Assembly: GCA_964450805.1 (NCBI GenBank) | Contig: CAYVDD010000001.1 | Location: 254,365 to 318,364, forward strand | Length of the DNA: 64,000 nucleotides | Direction: 5' to 3' | Source of the DNA: an uncultured Candidatus Saccharibacteria bacterium | GTDB lineage: Bacteria; Patescibacteriota; Minisyncoccia; Minisyncoccales; JANBVM01 | Part shown: positions 19,208 to 28,470 of the stretch, piece by piece | How the letters are laid out: every line of letters begins with the position of its first letter | How positions within the stretch are numbered: position 1 is the first letter of the stretch | Position numbers and translations under genes: made by a program | Notes under the pieces: generated by a model | Seen by the model: only the letters and a program-made list of their open reading frames with translations | Database searches by the model: none | Told to the model about the DNA's origin: nothing

Positions 19208-22170
19208 GAGGACAAGATATTGATTTATTAGTACTGCTCGGCTTAATAGGTTACCCTACTTACACCTACAGCCTATCAACCTCATCATCTTTGAGGAATC
19301 TAATAACGAGTCCTAATCTTGGAGTGGGTTTCGTGCTTAGATGCTTTCAGCACTTATCCCTTCCCAACATAGCTACCCAGCGATGCTCCTGGCGGAACAA
19401 CTGGTACACTAGAGGTTGGTTCAATCTGATCCTCTCGTACTAAGACCAAATCTCCTCAAGACTCTGCGCCTGCGGTAGAGAGAGACCGACCTGTCTTACG
19501 ACGGTCTGAACCCAGCTCGCGAACCACTTTAATGGACGAACAGTCCAACCCTTGGAAGCTTCTCCGCCTCCAGGATGTGACGAGCCGACATCGAGGTGCC
19601 GAACAGGGCCGTTGATATGGACTCGCGGGCCCTACTAGCCTGTTATCCCCAGGGTAACTTTTATCTGATGATCTCCGGCGGTCCTACAAACCACCGTCGG
19701 TTCACTAAGCCCCGGTTTCCCGACAGTTCGTGACATTCTACTCACTGTAAAGCCGGCTTATGGCTTTGCCCTAAACGTACGATTTCCATCCGTACTTAGC
19801 CGACCTTTGGACGCCTCCGCTACTCTTTAGGAGGCAAGTGCCCCACTTAAACTGCCCACCAAACACTGTCTCGCGCAAAACGCGATTAGAATCAAAGTTT
19901 TGAAAGATGGGTGTTTCATTGACGACTCCATCTAATCCGAAAACTAGATTTCAAAGTCTACCCACTACACTACGCATCCAAAACAAAAACTCAATATCAG
20001 GTTACAGTAAAGCTCCTGGGGTCTTTTCGTCTAGCCGCAGGTAGGGGGCATCTTCACCCCCATTGTATTTTCACCGGGCTCCTCGTTGAGACAGTTCTCT
20101 AGTCGTTGAGCCTTTCATGCGGGCCGGAACTTACCCGACAAGGGATTACGCTACTTTAACACGGTTATAGTTACCGCGGACGTTCACCGGAAGCTTAACC
20201 CACTCAGCTATTCTACCCGAAAGCAAAGCAACCGATAGGTTTAACAGTCCGGCACTGGTCAGGCCTCAGCCCCTATACATCCTCTTACGAGTTTAGCAGG
20301 GACCTGTGTTTTAGATAAACAGTCGCCAGAGAGACTTTCGCTGCGGCCACAATAAATGTGGCAAGGCATATTGCGAACTTACGCCTGCTTGTTTGCCGAG
20401 TTCCTTAACGAGGTTTCACCCGTTCACCTTAGTACTCTTACACCAGTCCACCTGTGTTGGTTTGCGGTACGGATCTCTTTAACTAGTATATTCAAGGTTT
20501 TTCCAGGAAAAGTGCTCTCCTGAATTTTTCTTCCCGTGGAAAGAAATTTTCACAACATTTGAAAAATCTTATGTAATGAACGCAAATCCAATAATGCGCC
20601 CAGAATACTACTTTTCGTCGCTTGAGTTTAGTTAATGAGAGGGTCGGAATATTAACCGACTGCCCATCGGCTACGCCCTTCGACTTTGCCTTAGGACCGC
20701 CTAACCCTTGGTTGATTATCATTGCCAAGGAAACCTTGGACTTTCGGTGTCAAGGTATCTCGCCTTGATTGCGGTTACTCATACCAACATTCTCACTTCT
20801 TAGCGCTCCACTAAACTTTACAATTTAGCTTCGCTGCACTAAGAACGCTCCCCTACCACGCATCACAAAAGTGATGCATCCTTATCTTCGGTACTGAACT
20901 TAAGCCCCGTTGAATCTTCGGCGCAGAATTCCTTAGCTAGTAAGCTATTACGCACTTTTTAAAGGATAGCTGCTTCTAAGCTTACCTCCTAGCTATCCAT
21001 GGAATTCCACCTCCTTTCTCACTTAGCTCTCAGCCTGATGGCTGATCTGTTAAAAACAGAAGATTTAGGGACCTTAGATTAAGGTCTGGGTTGTTTCCCT
21101 CTTGAGCTTGGACATTAGCGCCCAAGTTCTGACTCTAGAGATTAAAAAATTGACATTCGGAGTTTGGTAGAAATACCTACCTTTCGGCACGATATCTCTT
21201 CCAGTGCTCTACCTTCAATTTCTATTCTTCTAGGCTAGCCCCAGAGCTATTTCGGGGAGAACCAGCTATTACCAGGCCCGATTAGGGTTTCCCAACTTAC
21301 CACAGCTCATCCCAGGGTTTTGCACTACCCACGGGTTCGGACCTCCTCCATCTTTTCAGACGGATTCATCCTGGCCATGGCAAGCTCGCCTGATTTCGGG
21401 TCTCGCACACTCTCTTATAAACGCGCTATTAACACTCGGTTTCCCTATGCCTTTGTCCCAGAAGGACTTAGACAAGAAAGTACACGAACTCGTTGGTGCC
21501 TGCTCCAAAAGGTACGCCGTCACTGCGAAAAACGCAGCTCCGACTTTTTGTTAGCAAATGGTTTCAGGTTCTATTTCACTGGGATCACCTCCCTGCTTTT
21601 CACCTTTCCCTCACGGTACTTGTTCACTATCGGTGAGATTGAGTATTTAGCCTTGGCTAGTAGTTTAGCCTGCTTCCCGCAGAGGTTTCTTCCCCGAGCG
21701 GTACTCAAGATTATAGATAACAAGGAGCATAAAGTGATTTTCGCCTACTGGACTATTACCGTCTTTGGTGCCTCTTTCCAGAGTGCTTTGGCTAATCAAA
21801 CTTTGTCTAAGTATTCTCCCTCAGAAATATTCCAGTGCACCCGGAATACTCCCGACGCTATCTTCTTACAACCCTCTATATAAAATATAAAGTTTGGGCT
21901 CCTTCCTTTTCGCTCGCCGCTACTAAGGAAATTTATAAAACATAAGTTTTACTTTTTTTCTTTTCCTCCGCTTACTAAGATGTTTCAATTCAGCGGGTTA
22001 ACTCCGCGTCAGACGCGGTAATCACGTTTAATGTGATTGGGTTTCCCCATTCGGAAATCCTCGGATCAAAGGTTGGTAGACACCTAACCGAGGCTTATCG
22101 CAGCCACCCCACGTCCTTCATCGCCTCAATCTCCCAAGGCATCCACCATTTGCCGTAGTAATCTTGCCCT
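19208..22170 (-). rRNA. rrl: 23S ribosomal RNA (about 2.96 kb, no large insertion)
   Basis: The reverse complement of the 5' end matches 'GGTGGATGCC...GGCGATGAAGGACGTG'. It also contains 'GGATAAGTGCTGAAAGCATCTAAG', and the 3' end matches '...GTACTAAT...'. Boundaries are good to about 10 nt. Confidence 0.9.
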
Positions 22171-22385
22171 CAAAAATTTTACGAAACTAAAATAACTAAG
22201 ATGAATAATTTTTTAGCTAGATATTTTTTCCTTATTCAATTTTAGAGTTCTTTCTTACTCTTTCTAAACTTAAAAAACCGCCACAGAGCGGTTTTATCAA
22301 CACAAAGACACTTGTGCTTTTTTAACCGCTTCTTATTCTTATTAATTGTCTGTCTGATTTATAAAGCTTTCCCATACCCAGATTA

Positions 22386-22413
22386 ATTTTAGCAGAGTAA
22401 AAGTTGTTGTCAA
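22386..22413 (-). promoter_or_regulatory. Sigma70-like promoter for the 23S-5S unit (TTGACA-N16-TAAAAT)
   Basis: Minus-strand TTGACA (plus 22408-22413) and TAAAAT (plus 22386-22391), about 215 nt upstream of the 23S 5' end. Confidence 0.45.
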
Positions 22414-22474
22414 GAAAAACAAACATCCCAGATTCAAAAACAAACCTGAGATGCTTTTATATACTCAGAGAATT

Positions 22475-26696: not shown

Positions 26697-28232
26697 ATGT
26701 AGTGATCCACGGACAGCTTCCGCTACCCGTGCCTTGTTACAACTTCGCCCCTCTTACTGAACCCAGCTTAGGTCCTGTTTTAACAGGAACTTCGGCTATT
26801 CTCAGCTCGCTTGGCGTGATGGGCGGTGAGTACAAGGCCCAGGGACGTATTCATCGCGACATCGCTGATTCGCGATTACTAGCGATTCCAGCTTCATGAG
26901 GTCGAGTTGCAGACCTCAATCCGAACTAAGACTAGGTTTGATGGGATTAGCTCCGGATTTCTCCTTGGCAACCCATTGTCCTAGCCATTGTATCATGTGT
27001 GCAGCCCAGGGCATCAAAAGGCCATGCGGATTTGGCGTCATCCCAACCTTCCTCCGTATCATCTACGGCAGTCCTCTATGACATATAAAACATAGAGCAG
27101 GGGTTACGCAGGTTTCCCCATTTAAGGGAGCGTCTCACGACACCTGCTGACGACAACCATGCAACACCTGGACTAATGTCCTTGTAAGGTAGACCTACTT
27201 TTCAATAGGTTTTCACTAGTCTGTCAAGCCCTGGTAAGGTCCCTCGTTTGTTATCGAATTAAGCCACATGATCCACCGCTTGTGTGAGCCCCCGTCTATT
27301 CCTTTGAGTTTTAGCCTTGCGGCCGTACTTCCCAGGCGGGATACTTAACGCGTTAGCTTCGCCACTTGTAGGGTCGACACTACAAATAGCCAGTATCCAT
27401 CGTTTACAGCCAGGACTACAAAGGTATCTAATCTTTTTTGCTCCCCTGGCTTTCGTCCCTCAGCGTCAGGGTCACCCCAGTAAGCTGCCTTCGCTTTTGG
27501 TGTTCCGCACAATATCAACGGATTCCACCCCTACACCGTGCGTTCCGCTTACCTCTAATGCCCTCTAGTTTAACAGTTTCTGGCGCCTTCCTTAGGTTGA
27601 GCCAAAGGTATTTAACACCAGACTTATTAAACCGCCTACGGACCCTTTACGCCCAGTAAATTCGGATAACGCTTGGGGATTCTGTATTACCGCGGCTGCT
27701 GGCACAGAATTTGCATCCCCTTATTCCTGGAGTACCGTCATCCCCCACCACTTTTCACGAATAATTCATGAAAAATGGCGGGGGATTCTCCCTCCATAAA
27801 AGCAGTTTACAACCCGAAGGCATTCTTCCTGCACGCGGCGTCGCTGGTTCAGGGTTTCCCCCATTGACCAATATTCTCGACTGCTGCCTCCCGTAGGAGT
27901 ATGGCCCGTGTTTCAGTGCCATCGTTGGCGGTCAAGCTCTCACTCCGCCTACCCGTCATAGCCTTGGTAAGCCGTTACCTTACCAACAAGCTGATAAGCC
28001 ATGGACCGATCCTAAAGCGGTTGGAAAACCTTCCGTTTACTTATCTTTTCTTGTGAAAAAATAAGCATATCAGGAATTAGCCTGAATTTCTCCAGGTTGT
28101 TCCTGTCTTTAGGGTTCGTTGCCCATGTATTACTAACTAGTTTGCCGCTTATCACCCGAAGGTGATCCGCTTGACTTGCATGCCTTATCCACGCCGCCAG
28201 CGTTCATCCTGGACTAGGATCAAATCCTCAAC
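26697..28232 (-). rRNA. rrs: 16S ribosomal RNA (about 1.54 kb) with a non-canonical 3' tail lacking CCUCC
   Basis: The reverse complement of the 5' end is 'TGAGGATTTGATCCTAGTCCAGGATGAACGCTGGCGGCGTG'. The 3' end is '...GTTGTAACAAGGCACGGGTAGCGGAAGCTGTCCGTGGATCACTACATTTTT'. The flanking inverted repeat TTAGAGTTATCCCGACTA (26597-26614 and 28240-28257) forms the processing stem. Confidence 0.9.
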
Positions 28233-28437
28233 TAAAAAATAGTCGGGATAACTCTAAAAAACTAATTATATTAATTATCAGGTCCTTACTATTAAGTTTT
28301 AATGTTCTTTCCTTTAAAGTAAAAAATCAGGAAGAGACATCCTGATCATTTCCGAAATCTTTAATTAATGATTCGCTTATTTACATCTTTTCTTTTTTTT
28401 CTTAGTCATTTCTTTATTTATTAGTCTCTTCAATTTT

Positions 28438-28465
28438 ATTGTATATTTTTAAAAAATTATGTCAA
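28438..28465 (-). promoter_or_regulatory. Sigma70-like promoter for 16S (TTGACA-N16-TACAAT)
   Basis: Minus-strand TTGACA (plus 28460-28465) and TACAAT (plus 28438-28443), about 200 nt upstream of the 16S 5' end. Confidence 0.45.
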
Positions 28466-28470
28466 TATCT

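Follow-up and report, generated by a model that had tools for sequence, protein, structure and literature searches.

How are 16S and 23S rRNA transcribed when their genes lie kilobases apart, and what sets the supply of the 23S-5S part? We addressed this question in a locus of an uncultured, tiny-genome Candidatus Saccharibacteria bacterium (Patescibacteria), using a 64,000-nt stretch of its DNA (the window), in whose coordinates all positions are given; features are on the minus strand unless stated otherwise. Rfam finds full-length 16S (26695-28235; RF00177, 1392.9 bits) and 23S (19208-22169; RF02541, 2335.6 bits) rRNA genes, the latter with no introns, and a 5S rRNA gene (19050-19159; RF00001, 81.1 bits). 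The first two are separated by 4,525 nt. An earlier reading of the letters of the window (the sequence-only reading) had put them about 4.5 kb apart on the minus strand, with coordinates that agree with Rfam to within 3 nt. The gap holds tRNA-Ile(GAT) (25152-25224), tRNA-Ala(TGC) (25071-25145), and six protein genes. Both tRNAs, which that reading had also placed in the spacer, are found by ARAGORN and Rfam; it had counted seven protein genes, but the actual number, and that of its own list, is six.

Separate transcription units

The best two sigma-70 matches in the 10-kb region (11/12 each) are the two promoters that the sequence-only reading had singled out: TTGACA-N16-TACAAT ahead of 16S (P16S, 28438-28465) and TTGACA-N16-TGc-TAAAAT, with an extended -10, ahead of 23S (P23S, 22386-22413). 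Since the total of promoter-like matches in this region is not above chance (29 observed versus 25.6 expected), P16S and P23S are supported by where they lie and by being invariant in relatives. Indeed, the TTGACA hexamer of P16S is unchanged in 6 genomes, and CTTGACA and TGnTAnAAT of P23S are invariant in 6 genomes, despite diverged flanks. The bidirectional terminator that had been proposed just past the 16S 3′ end is a hairpin with a 10-bp stem, an A-run on one side, and a T-run on the other (26556-26582, both strands); it sits between 16S and a convergent exonuclease gene, closes both, and has an equivalent 3′ of 16S in relatives L001, L004, and L006. A 26-nt inverted repeat with 96% complementary arms brackets 16S as a processing stem (5′ arm, 28240-28265; 3′ arm, 26587-26612, conserved in relatives), and a 25-nt repeat with 92% complementary arms forms that of 23S (22161-22185 and 19194-19218). 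The 23S-5S unit probably ends at an extended 5S stem (inverted repeat 19036-19061/19149-19174), whose 3′ arm is followed by a T-run (19033-19059). The promoter and leaderless ATG of mreC come after this point.

The gene positions and the conserved promoters and terminators are read directly from the sequence, and on that reading 16S and 23S-5S are separate transcription units, as had been claimed. One unit would run from P16S through a boxA-like leader and 16S, within its own processing stem, to the intrinsic terminator. Another would start at a protein-gene promoter and carry a SAM methyltransferase gene, tRNA-Ile, and tRNA-Ala to a terminator, and genes for a CYTH and a deoxyribosyltransferase-like protein probably belong to it. 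The third would consist of an MscS-like gene between a promoter and a terminator of its own, and the fourth would extend from P23S through a leader, 23S, and 5S to the terminator-like stem. Beside these four minus-strand units, the exonuclease gene and a second CYTH gene are antisense insertions.

Two other accounts of the layout were weighed. In a classical rrn operon with a very long ITS, a single transcript from the 16S promoter to 5S would carry the cargo genes and tRNAs. The tRNAs are indeed in canonical ITS order, and an ITS would normally carry a boxA-like element ahead of 23S as well. We nevertheless regard this as very improbable given the conserved intrinsic terminator 114 nt past 16S, the two antisense genes with convergent terminators in the gap, the terminator past the MscS-like gene, and the invariant near-consensus promoter ahead of 23S; moreover, some relatives have 23S over 10 kb off or lack it in the neighborhood. 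The chance that the stretch from 22.2 to 26.7 kb is an assembly chimera, an error that the sequence-only reading had allowed for, is negligible. Composition is uniform over its junctions, and comparison of synteny refutes a chimera, since independently assembled genomes of relatives labelled Candidatus Nealsonbacteria, taken from different samples, show the same layout; two of them, CP179890.1 and CP179892.1, are complete. The conserved order is polyprenyl synthase, 16S, methyltransferase, tRNA-Ile, tRNA-Ala, MscS-like gene, 23S, 5S, and mreC; it is shared by L001, L003, L004, L006, L007, and L010, with 16S-23S gaps of 3.2 to 10.7 kb. The split is ancestral to this lineage. It is also ordinary, since unlinked rRNA genes (>1500 bp apart) have been reported to be widespread, with Patescibacteria cited as a clade where they abound (bioRxiv 10.1101/705046).

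Cargo genes of the spacer

Pfam confirmed the identities that had been assigned to the spacer genes. Next to the 16S terminator, and antisense to the rRNA genes, lies a DEDDh 3′-5′ exonuclease of the ERI1/KapD type (25933-26508, plus strand; PF00929, RNase_T; PDB matches to ERI1). It is a lineage-specific insertion: its homologues in L011 and L012 are outside rRNA loci, and its position in relatives is occupied by a YbaK-like tRNA_edit gene. The class I SAM methyltransferase (25215-25790; Pfam), whose stop codon lies within tRNA-Ile, is 75 to 84% identical in the closest relatives and also sits between 16S and tRNA-Ile in L001, L003, L004, and L006-L010. Its AF2 model (pLDDT 88.9) has a generic small-molecule methyltransferase fold. 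Upstream of this methyltransferase-tRNA block is a promoter-like site, TTGTCA-17-TAAAAT (25839-25867; 10/12 match), and relatives carry TTGTCA-17-TAGAAT directly past the 16S terminator.

The next two genes are variable cargo: a CYTH protein similar to class IV adenylate cyclases (24469-25014; PF01928; TIGR00318, 75.6 bits, above the cut-off), not found at the equivalent position in relatives, and a nucleoside 2-deoxyribosyltransferase-like protein (23975-24361; PF05014, Nuc_deoxyrib_tr, 33.8 bits), present in L001 and L004 and not in L006. A terminator hairpin with a 13-bp stem and a T-run (23928-23957, no strand assigned) separates the latter from a convergent second CYTH gene (23336-23908, plus strand; PF01928; TIGR00318, 91.2 bits), which is antisense to the rRNA genes and also present in L001, L006, and L007. 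Directly upstream of the 23S promoter is a membrane protein with MscS-type TM helices (22475-23158; PF05552), in the same place in L001, L003, L004, L006, L007, and L010; its terminator (22421-22456) is conserved in the alignment of relatives.

The sequence-only reading had suggested that rRNA transcription may drive some of these genes. Because the 16S unit stops at its terminator, and because a separate promoter-like site serves the methyltransferase-tRNA block, another the MscS-like gene, and a third the CYTH gene on the plus strand, rRNA transcription probably drives neither cargo nor tRNAs; if anything, the two tRNAs depend on the promoter of a protein gene. The earlier interpretation is partly supported: it stands as to separate units and an intact assembly and finds no support as to an unusual arrangement and rRNA-driven cargo.

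A candidate attenuator in the 23S leader

The split layout was already known from Patescibacteria; the unexpected part of the locus is the 23S leader, with its mini-ORF and putative terminator/anti-terminator switch. The near-leaderless mini-ORF, MGKLYKSDRQLIRIRSG plus stop (22322-22375; 17 codons), begins with an ATG 10 nt past the -10 hexamer. Its last codons, adjoined by the stop codon, form segment 1, GAAGCGGT (22325-22332), the 5′ arm of an anti-terminator. A variable inner hairpin in the MFE structure (22300-22317), possibly a pause hairpin, is followed by segment 2, ACCGCT (22287-22292), which pairs with either segment 1, in a consensus helix of 9 bp, or segment 3. The latter with its U-run, GCGGTTTTTT (22272-22281), makes the 3′ arm and tail of an intrinsic-terminator-like hairpin (terminator match, 22295-22274). 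Next comes a boxA-like motif, GAAAGAACTCTAAAATTGAATA (22233-22254), common to the 16S leader. The fold of the window's leader is marginally better than shuffles (z = -1.7). The sequence-only reading had not listed these elements between the 23S promoter and 23S.

We propose that this module is a candidate ribosome-dependent attenuator of 23S-5S synthesis. The transcript from P23S would have an AUG within a few nucleotides of its 5′ end. A ribosome reaching the stop of the 17-codon ORF would cover segment 1 (GAAGCGGU) and free segment 2 for segment 3; the resulting GC hairpin with its U-run would end transcription ahead of boxA and 23S. On a leader without a ribosome, segments 1 and 2 would pair and block the terminator, and RNA polymerase would continue past boxA to 23S-5S. 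The model predicts that translation capacity feeds back negatively on large-subunit rRNA synthesis. If true, the feedback would replace the stoichiometric coupling lost on separation of 16S and 23S, and the leader would let ribosomes hold back the supply of their own RNA. Regulatory codon runs, as found in the trp, his, and Cys attenuators, are absent from the 23S leader peptide. What the leaders show directly is the conserved ORF and two pairings that exclude each other; the transcription start, translation of the mini-ORF, terminator function, and direction of regulation we infer from them.

Conservation of the leader module

The promoter, ATG, segments 1 and 2, segment 3 with its U-run, and boxA are present in 6/6 unselected genomes. 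A scan of species-representative genomes for the three segments gave 54 matches. About 24 lie 90 to 350 nt upstream of a same-strand 23S in CPR-type MAGs, with 23S genes 71 to 93% identical to that of the window; the remaining matches are unrelated, with no 23S near them. Among 31 23S leaders, 30 have the promoter TTGACA-16/17-TAnnnT and 30 an ATG ORF of 12 to 18 codons (L031 lacks one), and the stop codon starts right after segment 1 in 23. The conserved frame, of some 13 to 17 codons, precedes 23S here and in about 47 related genomes, and an equivalent mini-ORF is present in 47 of 48 unique leaders. It usually ends in Ser-Gly-stop, the codons that form the 5′ arm of the helix, and its ATG is 6 to 14 nt from the -10 hexamer. 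Its frame contains 0 stops in 234 codons, versus 31 and 15 in the two alternative frames; the joint chance probability, a product of per-sequence probabilities over 17 clusters at below ~80% identity, is ~10^-10.7. Column entropy is 1.25, 1.48, and 1.70 bits at codon positions 1, 2, and 3, highest at the third. As an independent test, metagenomes were queried with segment 2, segment 3, and boxA only, leaving segment 1, ORF, and promoter unspecified. A mini-ORF with 3′-end pairing to segment 2 was found in 21/21 informative loci upstream of 23S and a promoter in 18/21, against 4/79 and 0/79, respectively, among chance matches. In all 47 unique leaders, the module precedes an unlinked 23S, and where 1.7 kb or more of upstream sequence is available (35 loci), no 16S lies within that distance.

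With segment 1 masked, the terminator forms in 28/28 leaders; unmasked, pairing of segments 1 and 2 is the MFE structure in 18/28. In the other 10 the equilibrium MFE already includes the terminator, which makes the default state uncertain. Every leader hairpin has a U tail of 5 to 7, and over 47 leaders the inner regions fold more stably than shuffled sequences do (mean z = -1.59). Neither helix shows compensatory covariation, because the segments are nearly invariant, and a protein-binding site would explain such invariance equally well. A recognizable promoter lies 17 to 87 nt from the ATG in 9/43 leaders, so not all are leaderless. Since ordinary genes (mreC here, tRNA_edit in relatives) also have a -10 hexamer 6 to 8 nt from the ATG, and the 16S 3′ tail, GGAUCACUACAUUU, contains no CCUCC, SD-less initiation near the 5′ end looks normal in this organism.

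Alternative explanations of the leader

Sites of the rrn nut type, in leaders and spacers alike, normally have boxA closely preceded by a boxB hairpin (PMC8632103), and the hairpin of segments 2 and 3 could be such an element. The leader would then be an ordinary boxB-boxA-boxC or pause site with an untranslated ORF and constitutive read-through, in a plain unlinked locus. The lack of covariation in the helices and the modest z of the window's fold fit this reading, to which we give perhaps one chance in a handful. It leaves unexplained the open frame (0 stops versus 31 and 15, ~10^-10.7), the stop codon fixed at segment 1, the ATG 6 to 14 nt past the -10, the copy in segment 1 that competes for segment 2, and the U tail on every hairpin; besides, most relatives' 16S leaders have boxA without such a hairpin. 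It seems unlikely that the mini-ORF is instead a trans-acting small-protein gene, complete with promoter and terminator, 23S being made by leaky read-through or from an unrecognized downstream promoter. The peptides, of ~13 residues with the consensus M-R-K-x-x-x-I-L-N-K-G-S-G, do show family resemblance in a C-terminus-anchored alignment, Ser-Gly is retained through synonymous codons (AGC/AGT, GGT/GGA/GGC), and some genomes have a weak promoter-like match over the boxA region, such as TTGAAA-16-TACAAT in L006. However, the peptide is poorly conserved apart from the residues encoded by segment 1, and the module occurs only ahead of 23S. The downstream match scores 6 to 9 of 12 in most genomes, often without the final T of the -10 hexamer, and it recurs downstream of the 16S promoter, as fits an RNA element.

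Slightly less likely still is an attenuator built from the two alternative pairings but operated by a protein, for instance a Nus factor or an unassembled ribosomal protein of the large subunit, as in the L4, L10, and L20 leaders, with an incidental ORF. Near-invariance of GAAGCGGT and ACCGCT at 71 to 93% 23S identity suggests sequence-specific recognition, and attenuation by ribosomal proteins is established in other bacteria (PMC4538822, PMC1865079). Invariance is also expected, however, where one sequence both codes and pairs with two partners, and a protein would not account for the ORF statistics or the exact placement of the stop codon. On balance, we favor, with some confidence, a stably inherited, unlinked rRNA arrangement of independent units in which the 23S leader controls 23S-5S in the proposed manner.

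The 16S leader

The boxA-like motif of the 16S leader, GAAAGAACATTAAAACTTAATA (28290-28311), is shared with the 23S leader and conserved in relatives; its equivalent in other CPR genomes is CTTTGAAAATT. Upstream of it, a hairpin with a U-run gives a terminator-like match (28321-28347) that is kept in L001 and L041; other relatives, whose 16S leaders are shorter, lack it. We also read, tentatively, a short ORF, MTKKKKKRCK plus stop (28377-28409), which is present only in this sublineage and differs from its counterparts in L001 and L041 by an in-frame 3-nt indel and synonymous changes.

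Layout and conservation of the split rRNA locus

Rfam models placed a full-length 16S rRNA gene at 26695-28235, the 23S gene at 19208-22169, and the 5S gene at 19050-19159. This confirmed the split rRNA locus described in the sequence-only reading: 16S and 23S-5S are both on the minus strand, 4525 nt apart. Between them, ARAGORN found tRNA-Ile(GAT) at 25152-25224 and tRNA-Ala(TGC) at 25071-25145. The gap also holds six ORFs with Pfam support, encoding a DEDDh/RNase_T exonuclease (25933-26508, plus strand), a class I SAM methyltransferase (25215-25790, minus), a CYTH protein (24469-25014, minus), a nucleoside-deoxyribosyltransferase-like protein (23975-24361, minus), a second CYTH protein (23336-23908, plus), and a membrane protein with MscS-type helices (22475-23158, minus). 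The seven protein genes counted there originally were a miscount; the accompanying list also had six. Elsewhere in the window, an RNase P RNA (bacterial type A, 63018-63370) scored only 113.8 bits against a gathering threshold of 100 and is thus a divergent copy. At gathering thresholds, Rfam returned no family in the window besides the rRNAs, tRNAs, and RNase P.

For contigs of relatives, we took those that encode a methyltransferase homologue at 58-80% identity; among named organisms, Candidatus Nealsonbacteria are the nearest. Independent assemblies, including the complete genomes CP179890.1 and CP179892.1, have a common gene order, with rRNAs and tRNAs confirmed: polyprenyl synthase (in closer relatives), 16S, [YbaK-like tRNA_edit], methyltransferase, tRNA-Ile, tRNA-Ala, [deoxyribosyltransferase-like], [CYTH], MscS-like, 23S, 5S, mreC. 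The layout of the window recurs in the loci L001, L003, L004, L006, L007, and L010, all from independent assemblies. Close relatives have 16S-23S gaps of 3182-3628 nt, and L003 has one of 10,714 nt; neither L008 nor L009 has a 23S within 10 kb. The locus is real and not an assembly chimera at 22.2-26.7 kb, a concern raised when it was first noticed. Its core cargo is the methyltransferase, the two tRNAs, and the MscS-like gene, while the CYTH and deoxyribosyltransferase-like genes are present in some genomes and missing from others. Only the lineage of the window has the antisense exonuclease here: relatives have tRNA_edit in that place, and the homologues of the exonuclease found elsewhere lie away from rRNA genes. 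Group I introns and LAGLIDADG homing-endonuclease genes lie in or beside the 23S or 16S of relatives (L001 14979-15274; L006 15847-16172 and 14713-15219; L009 9141-9569; L010 8501-9061); none was found in the window's own rRNA genes.

Brewer et al. (bioRxiv 10.1101/705046) report that unlinked rRNA genes, with more than 1500 bp between 16S and 23S, are widespread and phylogenetically conserved, and they explicitly name Patescibacteria as a clade rich in them. The present locus falls under that definition, with 4525 nt in the window, 3182-10714 nt in relatives, and a clade-wide layout, and here too the 23S is kept with the 5S. The split as such is known biology and the locus a further case of unlinked rRNA genes, so the claim that its arrangement and cargo are unusual was not supported. 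As far as we found, the work of Brewer et al. classes genomes by distance only and does not describe promoters, terminators, leaders, or cargo; the two genes here share a neighborhood, 3-11 kb apart, with units delimited at sequence level. The rRNA cluster of Borrelia burgdorferi is similar in carrying tRNA-Ala and tRNA-Ile in a long spacer between 16S and 23S, followed by 23S-5S-23S-5S. It differs from the window in this tandem duplication, in tRNA order and orientation, and in its unrelated cargo genes. Schwartz et al. in 1992 and Fraser et al. in 1997 reportedly found the Borrelia spacer to be several kb long and to hold protein genes as well, and we know of no leader ORF reported for that cluster. 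Alone, the split would be a textbook-level example of something already catalogued and would merit little attention. It is the leader, not the split, that makes the locus worth following up.

Separate transcription units for 16S and 23S-5S

The two best sigma-70 matches in the region lie at 28465-28438, before 16S, and at 22413-22386, before 23S. These are the sites proposed in the sequence-only reading as separate promoters for 16S and 23S-5S, and their invariant elements support that proposal: TTGACA before 16S is unchanged in six genomes in otherwise variable sequence, as are CTTGACA and TGnTAnAAT before 23S. Since promoter-like matches as a class are not enriched (29 versus 25.6 in shuffles), the case for these two promoters rests on conservation. 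Inverted repeats surround the 16S (28240-28265 and 26587-26612; 26 nt, 96%), the 23S (22161-22185 and 19194-19218; 25 nt, 92%), and the 5S (19149-19174 and 19036-19061). Beyond the 3′ arm of the 16S stem lies a hairpin between an A-run and a T-run at 26556-26582, in agreement with the terminator first noted just past the 16S 3′ end. An equivalent hairpin is kept in L001, L004, and L006, where TTGTCA-17-TAGAAT follows directly, with the tRNA_edit ATG 8 nt on. In the window, a TTGTCA-17-TAAAAT site lies upstream of the methyltransferase (25867-25839), and the MscS-like gene has an extended -10 promoter-like site, read from the sequence, at 23230-23213 and a terminator at 22456-22421.

The region does not read as a canonical one-transcript rrn operon: terminators lie at 26556-26582, 23928-23957, and 22421-22456, the conserved promoter at 22413-22386 precedes the 23S, and two genes in the gap are on the plus strand. 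The tRNA-Ile and tRNA-Ala genes do stand between 16S and 23S as in the canonical operon, but behind a protein gene. Given the terminator after 16S and the terminators and promoter-like sites of the cargo units, we found no sequence support for the earlier suggestion that rRNA transcription drives the cargo genes. If anything, the arrangement suggests that a protein-gene promoter drives the two tRNAs.

A short ORF and alternative hairpins in the 23S leader

Six unselected genomes all share three short segments between the 23S promoter and boxA. The order is seg1 (GAAGCGGT), a variable hairpin, seg2 (ACCGCT), a short loop, seg3 (GCGGT), and then 4-6 more T. Seg2 can pair with seg1 in a consensus helix of 9 bp, which is also part of the minimum free energy (MFE) fold of the window's leader, or with seg3, which together with the U-run gives a terminator-like match at 22295-22274. 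A frame of 17 codons (MGKLYKSDRQLIRIRSG) starts with the ATG at 22375, 10 nt past the -10 hexamer. Seg1 forms the last codons of this mini-ORF (its last 8 nt), and the stop codon abuts it.

A scan for seg1-seg2-seg3 in one genome per species gave 54 matches. About 24 of these lie 90-350 nt upstream of a same-strand 23S in CPR-type MAGs, with 23S genes 71-93% identical to that of the window; the remaining matches fell in unrelated bacteria with no 23S nearby. TTGACA-16/17-TAnnnT was present in 30 of 31 23S leaders, and so was an ATG ORF of 12-18 codons. The stop codon follows seg1 directly in 23 of these 31 leaders; in a few it shares the last base of seg1, and in three it comes 3-5 nt further downstream. 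For frame statistics we used 17 clusters below ~80% identity. The leader ORF frame has 0 stops in 234 codons, compared to 31 and 15 in the other two frames, and the chance probabilities of an open frame, multiplied over the individual sequences, come to 10^-10.7. Column entropy in the codons before seg1 is 1.25, 1.48, and 1.70 bits at codon positions 1, 2, and 3.

Contigs filed as Thermoplasmatales, Promethearchaeota, or Saccharibacteria carry a Parcubacteria-type 23S leader and a bacterial 23S (L013, L052, and several “Saccharibacteria”-labelled loci, including L021, L022, L025, and L026); they are probably mis-binned or mislabelled. In L004 (3724-3930), the 23S promoter is tandemly duplicated, and a degenerate leader ORF stands behind the upstream copy: MTIKIIFRGEGGGG and a stop, ending GGT TAA.

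Because the genome scan had fixed seg1, we scanned metagenomes without it, using only seg2-seg3-U-run-TTGAAAA. Of the 120 loci obtained, 23 are followed by a 23S at no more than 500 nt. The 21 informative unique cases upstream of 23S all contain a mini-ORF, 11-24 codons long, that pairs with seg2 through its 3′ end (duplex dG of -7 kcal/mol or lower), and 18 of them have a TTGACA promoter ending 8-17 nt before the ATG. Among chance matches without a 23S (n = 79), four had the pairing mini-ORF and none the promoter. The terminal Ser-Gly codons are AGC GGT, AGC GGA, AGC GGC, or AGT GGT; the AGC-to-AGT change keeps a G-U pair. With both sets pooled, the ORF is present in 47 of 48 unique leaders. 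Its commonest length is 13 codons, 37 of the ORFs end in Ser-Gly, and the -10 hexamer lies 6-14 nt from the ATG in 34 of 43 leaders, the start site being an inferred one.

We then considered how these leaders fold. The stretch from the stop codon to seg2 is more structured than shuffles (mean z = -1.59). In unmasked folding, seg1:seg2 is the MFE structure in 18 of 28 leaders, and the equilibrium folds of 10 of the 28 already contain the terminator. When seg1 and the next 13 nt were masked, as by a terminating ribosome, the terminator formed in all 28, with a hairpin dG of -7.4 to -11.1 kcal/mol and 5-7 U in each. Neither helix shows covariation: the segments do not vary among the unselected genomes, and in the remaining ones the search patterns themselves fixed them. 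A comparison of the 23S leader with Rfam at E up to 10 gave no credible family. Among 35 loci for which 1.7 kb or more of upstream sequence was available, none has a 16S within 1.7 kb, so in these loci the module always accompanies an unlinked 23S.

A boxA-like motif follows the hairpin

The 16S and 23S leaders both carry a motif, GAAAGAAC..TAAAA.T.AATA, which reads CTTTGAAAATT(G/A)AATA in a wider CPR genome set; the two versions in the window have diverged (CTCTAAAATT and CATTAAAACTT). The boxA of Bacillus is UGUUCUUUGAAAACU, and the CPR motif resembles boxA of many bacteria. We take the shared motif to be a probable boxA. A second promoter (P2) between the U-run and the 23S was considered as well and rejected. 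In most genomes it matches 6-9 of 12 positions, often without the final T of the -10; the same motif also occurs downstream of the 16S promoter, and boxA is the better fit.

The seg2:seg3 hairpin might simply be boxB, since rrn nut-like sites, which occur in the 16S leader and again before 23S, carry a hairpin upstream of boxA (PMC8632103). Both leaders here share with the rrn nut-like leader (boxB-boxA-boxC, NusB/NusE) a conserved linear motif placed between a hairpin and the processing stem. The hairpin before boxA in the window's 23S leader has, in addition, a U-run and a competing upstream complement. To our knowledge, boxB elements have neither.

A candidate ribosome-dependent attenuator

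The short distance from promoter to start codon is shared with ordinary genes. The -10 hexamer ends 6 nt before the ATG of mreC at 18990 and 8 nt before that of tRNA_edit in relatives, a spacing of 6-8 nt that implies leaderless mRNAs. These two cases lie at 18990-19024 in the window and at 9455-9500 in L001, and of the 10 best promoter matches that precede ORFs in the window, four are spaced in this way. In the window and relatives, the 16S 3′ tail (26695-26708) reads GGAUCACUACAUUU, not ...CCUCCUUA: the anti-Shine-Dalgarno CCUCC is replaced by CUACA, and the change is kept in relatives (CACCACA in L003). No Shine-Dalgarno-like motifs are visible before the spacer genes. Since ordinary genes share the short-spaced architecture and the 16S tail is altered, initiation evidently does not depend on Shine-Dalgarno pairing. 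The mini-ORF, with its predicted lack of a 5′ UTR and with the anti-Shine-Dalgarno missing, would probably be translated by 70S ribosomes.

We infer the following mechanism from the sequence. A ribosome at the stop codon of the mini-ORF would cover seg1, seg2 would then pair with seg3, and transcription would end before boxA and the 23S. With no ribosome on the leader, seg1:seg2 would form and RNA polymerase would read through. The predicted outcome is that translation capacity feeds back negatively on 23S-5S synthesis. The model is weakened by the missing covariation, by the 10 of 28 folds that already hold the terminator, by the leader peptide's want of diagnostic codons, and by the possible boxB identity of seg2:seg3. 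More broadly, we put forward, as a serious possibility short of a probability, that a cis-encoded ribosome sensor, made of the leader ORF and the terminator it uncovers, gates 23S-5S transcription in many Patescibacteria with unlinked rRNA genes. Translation of a nearly leaderless mini-ORF of 13-17 codons would uncover an intrinsic terminator before boxA-23S; surplus translating ribosomes would switch large-subunit rRNA synthesis off, and a shortage would switch it on. In the two sets pooled, the leader peptides have no run or repeated diagnostic codon and contain much K, N, I, and R, in keeping with an AT-rich genome. If it works, the leader would therefore sense translation as such or termination at the Gly-stop. 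Peptide release after a C-terminal Gly is intrinsically slow, and the ribosome may for this reason dwell longer on seg1.

Known ribosome-mediated attenuators have a promoter-proximal short ORF, a terminator ahead of the gene they control, and a competing helix with a 5′ arm that the ribosome covers as it completes the ORF (PMC8632103). The 23S leader has a conserved open short ORF between promoter and gene (47 of 48 unique leaders), a GC hairpin with a U-run upstream of the gene, and, from sequence and folding, an exclusive anti-terminator helix whose 5′ arm would lie under the ORF ribosome. In these respects it resembles the trp, his, and pyrBI attenuators. Unlike their leaders, it would regulate rRNA rather than mRNA, has no diagnostic codon run, and has an ORF essentially without a 5′ UTR. 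It also has three segments instead of four, so that an untranslated leader is predicted to read through and not to super-attenuate. In mycobacterial polycysteine sORFs, the ORF lies at the transcript 5′ end and ribosome position selects the RNA structure (bioRxiv 10.1101/834739). The mini-ORF may likewise lie at the very 5′ end. The polycysteine tract and the control of a downstream ribosome-binding site are absent: the 23S leader has no Cys runs, and its alternative structure is a terminator before an rRNA gene.

No leader peptide or attenuator preceding an rRNA gene turned up in our literature search. As far as we found, the 23S leader would be an undescribed variant of ribosome-dependent attenuation. 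The module is compact (~110 nt) and widely conserved, with all the parts of a ribosome-operated switch directly before an rRNA gene. Should the proposal be right, an rRNA gene would here be under the control of a leader-peptide attenuator, an arrangement for which we found no report. Nomura and colleagues are said to have proposed “ribosome feedback” for rRNA control decades ago; the leader, if the proposal is true, would be a hard-wired form of it and would offer a means of restoring the balance of 50S and 30S once the operon had been split. How rRNA output is matched to translational need, and how 16S and 23S are balanced after uncoupling, are questions for much of the bacterial diversity with non-canonical operons.

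The 16S leader and the cargo genes

The 16S leader (28321-28409) of the window and of L001/L041 has a 10- to 11-codon ORF, MTK(K)KKKKRCK and a stop, followed by a hairpin with a U-run and then boxA. Between genomes, this ORF shows only an in-frame indel and synonymous changes, and by its sequence it may, with the hairpin, be a second, lineage-restricted attenuator. We rejected an equivalent of the 23S attenuator here: shuffled sequences fold just as well (z = -0.38), and the ORF and hairpin occur only in the window and L001/L041, other relatives having short leaders.

Functional ties of cargo proteins to rRNA were considered and rejected. The exonuclease resembles ERI1/KapD, but other genomes carry its homologues in other places; the fold of the methyltransferase is a generic class I one, with small-molecule methyltransferases as its nearest matches. 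No PADLOC defence model matched the CYTH and deoxyribosyltransferase-like proteins. Both CYTH proteins (23336-25014) exceed the curated cut-off of TIGR00318, the model for class IV adenylate cyclase, and their genes flank the nucleoside-deoxyribosyltransferase-like gene, in a set that varies among relatives.

The methyltransferase ORF runs 10 nt into tRNA-Ile (25215-25224), its TAG stop being tRNA nucleotides 8-10. RNase P cleavage of a methyltransferase-tRNA co-transcript would leave an mRNA without a stop codon. The exact overlap is kept in relatives down to 57% protein identity (L001 and L006, 10567-10576; L004, 2305-2314; L008 and L009, 10501-10510), and in L003 the methyltransferase and tRNA-Ile are one nucleotide apart.
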